Position numbers and translations under genes: made by a program. Below are positions 8,498-9,411 of a stretch of DNA of 9,411 nucleotides, in pieces. The first letter of the stretch is position 1. The number at the start of each line of letters is the position of its first letter. Source of the stretch: a virus (lineage: Duplodnaviria; Heunggongvirae; Uroviricota; Caudoviricetes); the IMG/VR virus record IMGVR_UViG_2606217106_000011, positions 1-9,411 of that record. One strand, 5' to 3'. The notes below the pieces were generated by a model. That model saw only the letters and a list, made by a program, of their open reading frames with translations, did not search any database and was not told the origin of the DNA.

Positions 8498-8970
8498 TAC
8501 CTGTATGGAGCACAGCCTGCCCGGACTGGGCAGAGCGCCTGAAAAAGGGGCTGTCGATTATTCCGGATCCGATTTATCCGGACGAGGCCGCACATGCCCT
8601 GGCGATTTTTAAACAACTGCGGATTGTGGATGCACCGGGTAGCCCGACGTTCGGGGAGTCCTGTGCACCGTGGGTGTTTGACCTGGTGGCGGCCCTGTTT
8701 GGCTCCTACGATGCGCAGACCGGTGTACGCCATATCAAGGAAGTTTTTATCCTTATCCCCAAGAAAAACTCGAAGTCCACGCTGGCCGCGGGGATCATGA
8801 TGACTGCACTGTTACTGAACTGGCGGCAGGCGGCGGGTTACACGATTCTGGCCCCGACTGTGGAGGTGGCGGCCAACGCCTTCAACCCTGCCCGGGATAT
8901 GGTACGACGTGACGATGATCTGGATGACCTCTGCCAGGTACAGACCCATACCGGTGCTGGCGGTGTATGA
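8494..8970 (+). pseudogene. terL: Terminase large subunit, N-terminal fragment only (158 codons); truncated by a deletion
   Basis: Starts in the ATGA overlap with terS; N-terminal sequence is terminase-large-subunit-like, but the ORF stops at 8968-8970 after 158 aa (full length would be about 500-600 aa). Downstream sequence in another frame is tail-protein-like. Confidence 0.7.
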
Positions 8971-9411
8971 CCCGACGGTACAGTTTGAATTCTGGTTCTC
9001 AGAAAAACGCATCACGAACACGGCACAGGTGGAAACCTCTGCCCGTTATCTGGGGACTGGCAGTCAGTGGACTGTCTCCGGCCCGCACATTAAGCCTGGG
9101 AAGGATTTCTGGTTTTATGTACGCAGCGTTAACCTGGTGGGGAAATCTGCTTTTGTTGAAGCCAGTGGACGGGCCAGCAATGATGCAGAAGGGTATCTGG
9201 GGCTGTTTCGGGAAAAAATAGGAAAACTGCATCTGGCTCAGGGGCTGTGGGAGCTGATAGACAACAGCCAGCTTGCGGATGAGATGGCGGAGATGAAGAC
9301 CACCATCACCGAAACCCGCAATGAAATCACACAGACGGTCAGTAAAACGCTGGAGGACCAGAGCGCCACCATACAGCAGATACAGCGCGTGCAGAAGGAC
9401 ACAAATGATGA
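8951..9411 (+). pseudogene. C-terminal-region fragment of a J-like tail-tip host-specificity protein (partial; continues past the window end)
   Basis: Frame 2 is open from about 8880 to the window end. The translation ...[51 protein letters not shown]... parallels the lambda J segment ...[34 protein letters not shown]... (recalled). No start codon or SD; joins directly to the truncated terL. Junction placed at about 8940-8970 by eye. Confidence 0.55.

Follow-up and report, generated by a model that had tools for sequence, protein, structure and literature searches.

The window analysed here, a stretch of 9,411 bp, is the complete draft contig JNRB01000114 of E. coli 2-460-02_S3_C1. Towards its left end lies a SASA-family carbohydrate esterase gene (nanS-p-like), which carries a 1-nt deletion at 1200-1210 relative to the intact 1,962-bp gene of AR_0017 and is split into ORFs of 408 aa (224-1450) and 221 aa (1519-2184). 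The esterase region is 99% identical to AR_0017 over 2,300 bp, and the frameshift may reflect either a real pseudogene or a sequencing error. A holin gene (2885-3100) and a lysozyme gene (4546-5079) both look intact. Between them is a 330-aa ORF (3104-4096) with an N-terminal DUF1327 (YdfR-like) domain; this ORF is far longer than the YdfR of about 114 aa found in W46 and FDAARGOS_536, and its counterpart in AR_0017 is annotated as incomplete. An Rz-like gene with a Phage_lysis domain follows (5518-5985), and embedded in it, in the +1 frame, is an ORF with a lipoprotein-like signal (LVAAAC; 5738-5923) that looks like the Rz1 equivalent. Between the lysis genes and the HNH and terS genes, a small ORF (6578-6904) encodes a lipoprotein-like signal peptide and a TonB_C domain. 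Related prophages keep this ORF under the annotation 'TonB family protein', and it may be a moron.

The terminase genes occupy the right part of the window, both on the plus strand. The small subunit gene terS (7934..8497) is apparently intact, matches Pfam Terminase_2, and encodes a 187-aa protein of which exact copies are present in at least 1000 contigs. It is followed by a terL reading frame of only 158 codons (8494..8970 in the ORF list), which consists of 152 terL codons, a junction codon that encodes Ile just as it does in terL, and five out-of-frame codons ending at a TGA. These last five codons are J-derived DNA. The terL-derived DNA itself (8494..8950, plus strand) corresponds to terL nt 1-457 and is 99.6% identical to intact terL genes. 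Pfam TerL_ATPase (PF03354) matches the 158-codon ORF with an E-value of 5.8e-7, over profile positions 5-81 of 178 only.

Measured against the HK97-type large terminases (6z6d; PF03354 plus PF20441), the first 152 residues belong to the family and keep a Walker A-like motif, PKKNSKST, at aa 89-96. Everything from terL aa 153 onward is, however, missing: the ORF ends at aa 158 and has neither a Walker B motif with its catalytic glutamate, nor a coupling motif, nor an in-frame nuclease, making it a pseudogene fragment. In intact terL the tetrapeptide LIDE (aa 184-187) aligns with ILDE of the large terminase 6z6d, which we take to be that of HK97, and both LIDE and a TTQ motif fall within the lost aa 153-279; they are the Walker B and coupling motifs. 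The PF20441 nuclease domain is absent from the window.

When the stretch 8494-9411 was compared by megablast with 5,426 complete E. coli genomes, it split cleanly into two parts. Query bases 1-461 are 99.6% identical to intact genes annotated 'terminase large subunit', and query bases 456-918 are 99.4% identical to genes annotated 'phage attachment tail tip protein J'. No record in these genomes covered 80% or more of the query, and neither megablast nor a 201-bp junction probe found the terL and J parts together in any of them. It had been proposed that alignment against an intact terL and J would locate the breakpoint. A base-level three-way alignment with the intact terL of ABU 83972 and an intact J of O104:H4 does so sharply, placing the switch at 8949/8950, with identity to terL extending through 8950 and identity to J beginning at 8949. 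This join, which we term junction 1 (8949..8950), carries a microhomology of TA, supplied by terL nt 456-457 and by J codon 730; an offset CCGG, one base beyond the TA, accounts for the gapped overlap reported by BLAST.

Around the breakpoint the parental terL and J sequences are identical at only 11 of 60 positions, which marks the join as non-homologous. Homeologous recombination was considered and rejected, extended similarity being absent at the breakpoints. Since the shared base is codon position 1 in terL (nt 457) and codon position 3 in J (codon 730), the two frames do not line up at the fusion, and terL therefore stops after 158 codons, at 8968-8970. The original prediction had read the locus in this way, with terL halting at 158 codons and J-like sequence continuing in a different frame from about 8951, and both points are borne out: J codon 731 begins at 8951, in frame 2.

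We refer to the J-derived piece (8949..9411, plus strand; 99.4% identical to gpJ genes) as segment X. It is 463 bp long and comes from the interior of a lambda-type J, corresponding to positions 4001-4463 of the O104:H4 sequence with an intact J (L002; J CDS 1813-5286) and thus to J codons 730-884 of 1157, with codons 731-883 complete. The similarity to J is not in doubt: the Pfam family Ig_J_second (PF24489) is found in segment X with an E-value of 5e-32, and residues 733-838 of the lambda J chain 8iyk_J are matched with an E-value of 1e-38, a match that includes the motif quoted in the original prediction. That prediction had, however, taken the fragment for the C-terminal region of J. It is instead internal, taking in the greater part of the second Ig-like domain and the beginning of the tail-tip fibre domain. 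The N-terminal hub and FNIII/Ig domains of J (residues 1-729) are absent, and upstream of 8949 the sequence is that of terL.

Segment X was also considered as a mobile element, intein or homing insertion, and this was rejected: it consists of ordinary J coding sequence and brings neither termini nor genes of its own. Read in the J frame, the sequence has no stop from 8819 onward and offers potential start codons at 8909, 8915, 8924, 8954 and 8963. Upstream of these starts no Shine-Dalgarno-like sequence is visible, and for this reason we propose no function for a translated J piece; it is most likely inert, a passenger without a function of its own.

Searching an index of 153 billion genes for the exact 158-aa protein returned three contigs only, all of them NCBI contigs. 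One is the window itself, from colony C1; the others are JNRD01000127 from colony C3 (L004 hereafter) and JNRC01000165 from colony C2 (L005). Where they overlap, over 2.1-2.2 kb, the three show 100% identity. The source study sampled Tanzanian children, with as many as three colonies picked from each stool at each time point, and the genomes were assembled with MaSuRCA 2.3.2 from 100-bp HiSeq reads (PMC6222053). C1 and C2 belong to phylogroup A, O111:H12, ST3281, and have identical plasmid and resistance profiles (PMC8923075). Junction 1 was absent from the 5,426 complete E. coli genomes, from the GTDB species representatives and JGI metagenome contigs, and from 50,697 phage records. A literature search under the WGS and assembly accessions gave nothing relevant. 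Because segment X is identical in the three contigs and the junction occurs in none of the other assemblies searched, the lesion looks recent.

These data bear directly on whether the junctions could be artefacts, arising from library chimeras, adapter errors or assembler errors in a genome whose terL is normal. The assemblies are fragmented short-read drafts, and the junction is absent from every other assembly searched. Furthermore, the deposited contig JNRD01000127 opens with an Illumina adapter tail (L004 1-10, CTTCCGATCT), from which it follows that adapter trimming of these assemblies was incomplete. Against this, three colony genomes that were assembled separately have the identical junction 1, and chimeras formed at random would not break at one and the same base each time. 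The parents have only 2 bp in common at the join; such an overlap cannot cause a k-mer or overlap assembler to make a false join, so reads must span the junctions, and we reject a mis-join of that kind. In addition, the end of the C1 contig independently marks the position at which a second junction lies in C3 (see below). We therefore regard an artefact as very improbable. Junction 1 is a real feature of one clone rather than a random chimera.

What lies beyond segment X differs between the contigs. By BLAST, L004 11-2114 corresponds to window 7308-9411, so that L004 matches the window to its last base, and from L004 2113 onward the sequence is that of terL from nt 837 onward. A four-way alignment resolves this as a second sharp join, in which J sequence ending in AATGATGA is followed directly by ATCTCGG of terL. 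This junction 2 of L004 coincides with the contig end of the window at 9410..9411; a GA is there common to J and to terL nt 837-838; against the W46-type terL allele the overlap is reduced to the A. As at junction 1, 11 of 60 flanking positions are identical between the parents. After segment X, L004 continues with an ORF for the terL nuclease domain, present there only as this detached 186-aa frame, and then with genes for capsid and portal. The portal ORF of 454 aa (L004 5151-6515) occurs, as an exact match, under at least two KDY accessions among those listed.

In L005, by contrast, the sequence from the fork point (L005 2192) is the rest of J followed by lom, and the receptor-binding domain of J (PF12421), absent after segment X in L004, is present. 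The 57-aa Lom fragment at the contig end (L005 3083-3255) is found under at least three KDY accessions among those listed. Matches such as these suggest several near-identical lambdoid modules and common contig break points in genomes of this sequencing batch, and may mean that each sibling has more than one such module.

Segment X therefore has two exits in this clone, into terL in L004 and into J in L005, and the window, which ends within J codon 884, stops exactly where the two diverge (window 9411; L004 2113-2114; L005 2192). Stopping at a fork is the expected behaviour of super-read extension at a branch, and with reads of 100 bp, shorter than segment X, the assemblers had no choice but to guess or to stop. 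The contig end at 9411 is thus a repeat boundary and not a biological end. Junction 2 is directly seen in one contig, L004; for the window's own genome we infer it from the position of the contig end.

The flanks of segment X in L004 are informative as to what was there before. The terL sequences on either side match at 99.7-99.8% one contiguous, intact terS-terL-capsid-portal block that is present in more than 1,100 complete genomes. Relative to this block, the only disruption in L004 is segment X, which stands in place of the missing 379 nt.

On balance we lean, with modest confidence, towards junction 1 being the left border of a short J-derived patch within terL, rather than the edge of a large deletion. 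Approximately 459 bp from the central part of a lambda-type J would have been copied in and would have replaced 379 bp of terL (nt 458-836, aa 153-279), giving a net change of +80 nt and breaking the frame on both sides. Each border would be a non-homologous join with 1-2 bp of microhomology. The most likely origin of such a structure would be either two template switches during replication or break repair, giving an MMBIR-like templated insertion, or a pair of illegitimate recombination events close to each other. The resulting terL would be frameshifted, without Walker B, TTQ coupling motif or in-frame nuclease, and would not support autonomous packaging, and the capsid, portal and probably tail genes would still follow it. 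An intact J elsewhere in the genome, holding an identical copy, would make segment X a 463-bp repeat. As a repeat of this length cannot be spanned by 100-bp reads, the end of the contig at 9411 and the different resolution of the siblings would follow.

Several observations support the patch. Junction 1 is identical in C1, C2 and C3, which come from one stool sample; the two junctions show the expected polarity and spacing, with 379 bp between them in terL and 463 bp in J; the flanks in L004 fit one intact terL; and neither junction shows extended homology. Other observations count against it. L005 has the N-terminal part of terL, segment X, the rest of J and lom on one contig, which is the layout that a real deletion predicts. 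The assembly graph is equally compatible with two pairs of paths, one in which segment X links the two parts of terL in one place and the two parts of J in another, and one in which it leads from the terL N-terminal part to the J C-terminal part and from the J N-terminal part to the terL C-terminal part. The adapter at the start of L004, moreover, indicates imperfect read cleaning.

In the original prediction, a deletion had taken out the greater part of terL and all of the head and tail genes. In a true large deletion of this type, terL nt 457 would be joined to J codon 730 and J would be complete from there on; the element would have lost its head genes along with most of terL and of the tail genes, and the join of J to terL nt 837 would belong to a second rearranged locus. 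The contigs are divided on this layout. L005, from C2, agrees with it, continuing from the terL N-terminal part through J to its end and into lom, whereas L004, from C3, goes on to terL from nt 837, capsid and portal. The join from segment X to terL in L004 makes a single, simple deletion inadequate. For the window, which stops at the fork, loss of the head and tail block is not established.

A second locus is nevertheless conceivable, given that the siblings seem to hold more than one near-identical lambdoid module. Remnants of the corresponding kind are known, too: the E. coli K-12 elements DLP12 and Qin keep lysis and small-terminase genes beside tail-fibre fragments. However, the deletion needs two independent non-homologous joins between terL and J at different loci, which by coincidence would lie no more than 379 bp apart in terL and 463 bp in J and would be oriented just as a patch requires. 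Nor is it easily reconciled with L004, whose flanks behave as one terL gene.

The location of potential donors is a further difficulty. In the complete genomes inspected, J of the X type lies in a different prophage from this type of terL. In FDAARGOS_536 a J that is 99.4% identical sits behind lambda-type head genes, and in strain 3059 the J and this terL type are about 164 kb apart; in W46 and AR_0017 the identity of J to segment X is no more than 81-88%. With J of this type in another prophage, up to 164 kb away, a deletion might have to take chromosomal genes with it. The separation of J and terL in relatives makes a donor elsewhere in the genome plausible, and weakens readings that rest on a simple deletion as well as those that rest on a deletion between repeats. 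We consider a true large deletion, with its second rearranged locus and its loss of head and tail genes, to be unlikely.

A deletion between repeats enters if both L004 and L005 are taken at face value. The patch would then have come first, as in C3 and probably C1, and RecA-dependent recombination between the 463-bp direct repeats would have followed in C2, costing that colony the C-terminal part of terL together with the head and tail genes, so that the layout of the original prediction would apply to C2 only. Each of the two contigs is internally consistent and they come from different colonies, recombination between the two copies of segment X would yield exactly the sequence of L005, and the C1 contig stops where the branch lies, which is what the presence of both exits in C1 would lead to. 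Such a sequence of events does, however, need the donor J downstream in the same prophage, which is not so in the related complete genomes inspected, and mis-resolution of a 463-bp repeat from 100-bp reads would explain L005 equally well. We think it improbable that both steps took place.

Under every one of these models in which the junction is genuine terL would be dead, and the view that the element is defective for packaging holds good: a prophage with this terL cannot package its own DNA. In this respect it resembles the cryptic lambdoid remnants of K-12 (DLP12, Qin and Rac), which likewise keep lysis and small-terminase genes with packaging broken, have fragments of tail genes nearby, and form no infectious particles alone. 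The K-12 remnants, however, are old, fixed deletions, often bordered by IS elements, whereas the lesion described here, found in a single stool clone only, very probably arose recently and may amount to a 459-bp patch, with no loss of the virion genes. The original prediction also suggested that the surviving lysis genes, terS, the HNH gene and several morons are retained for the host; this is a conjecture, the lesion being apparently recent and one of the morons, the SASA esterase gene, being split by a frameshift.

The junctions themselves can be compared with two known classes of join. Hendrix and colleagues are said to have put forward illegitimate recombination as the model for the non-homologous mosaic joints of HK97 and HK022. 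Like these lambdoid mosaic joints, junction 1 is sharp and brings together unrelated phage sequences with no or minimal homology. The classic joints lie at gene or domain borders and keep function, whereas the joint in the window falls within two genes, shifts the frame and puts terL out of action. Joints that destroy genes are normally purged by selection in free phages and are tolerated in a prophage. The second class, MMBIR/FoSTeS templated insertions, shares with the favoured patch a short copy of a distant sequence in the same orientation, which replaces a segment of similar size with 1-2 bp of microhomology at its borders; for the window, in contrast, the mechanism is read from the anatomy of the junctions alone. 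The lesion is a strain-specific prophage scar of a known kind and does not represent a new kind of system.

The finding carries a caution, in that an abrupt change from one gene to another, where it lies at the end of a contig assembled from short reads, can mimic a large deletion. If the patch model is correct, the induced prophage should lyse its host yet leave the heads unfilled, except where a compatible terminase is available from another prophage. If instead the patch was followed by recombination between the repeats, the three colonies would capture prophage decay in progress within one host, from an intact prophage towards a remnant that has lysis genes and terS, and confirmation would provide a concrete, datable example of the loss of virion modules from prophages. 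With this locus, the gut E. coli lineage O111:H12 ST3281 adds a further case in which non-homologous recombination has put a packaging gene of a prophage out of use.
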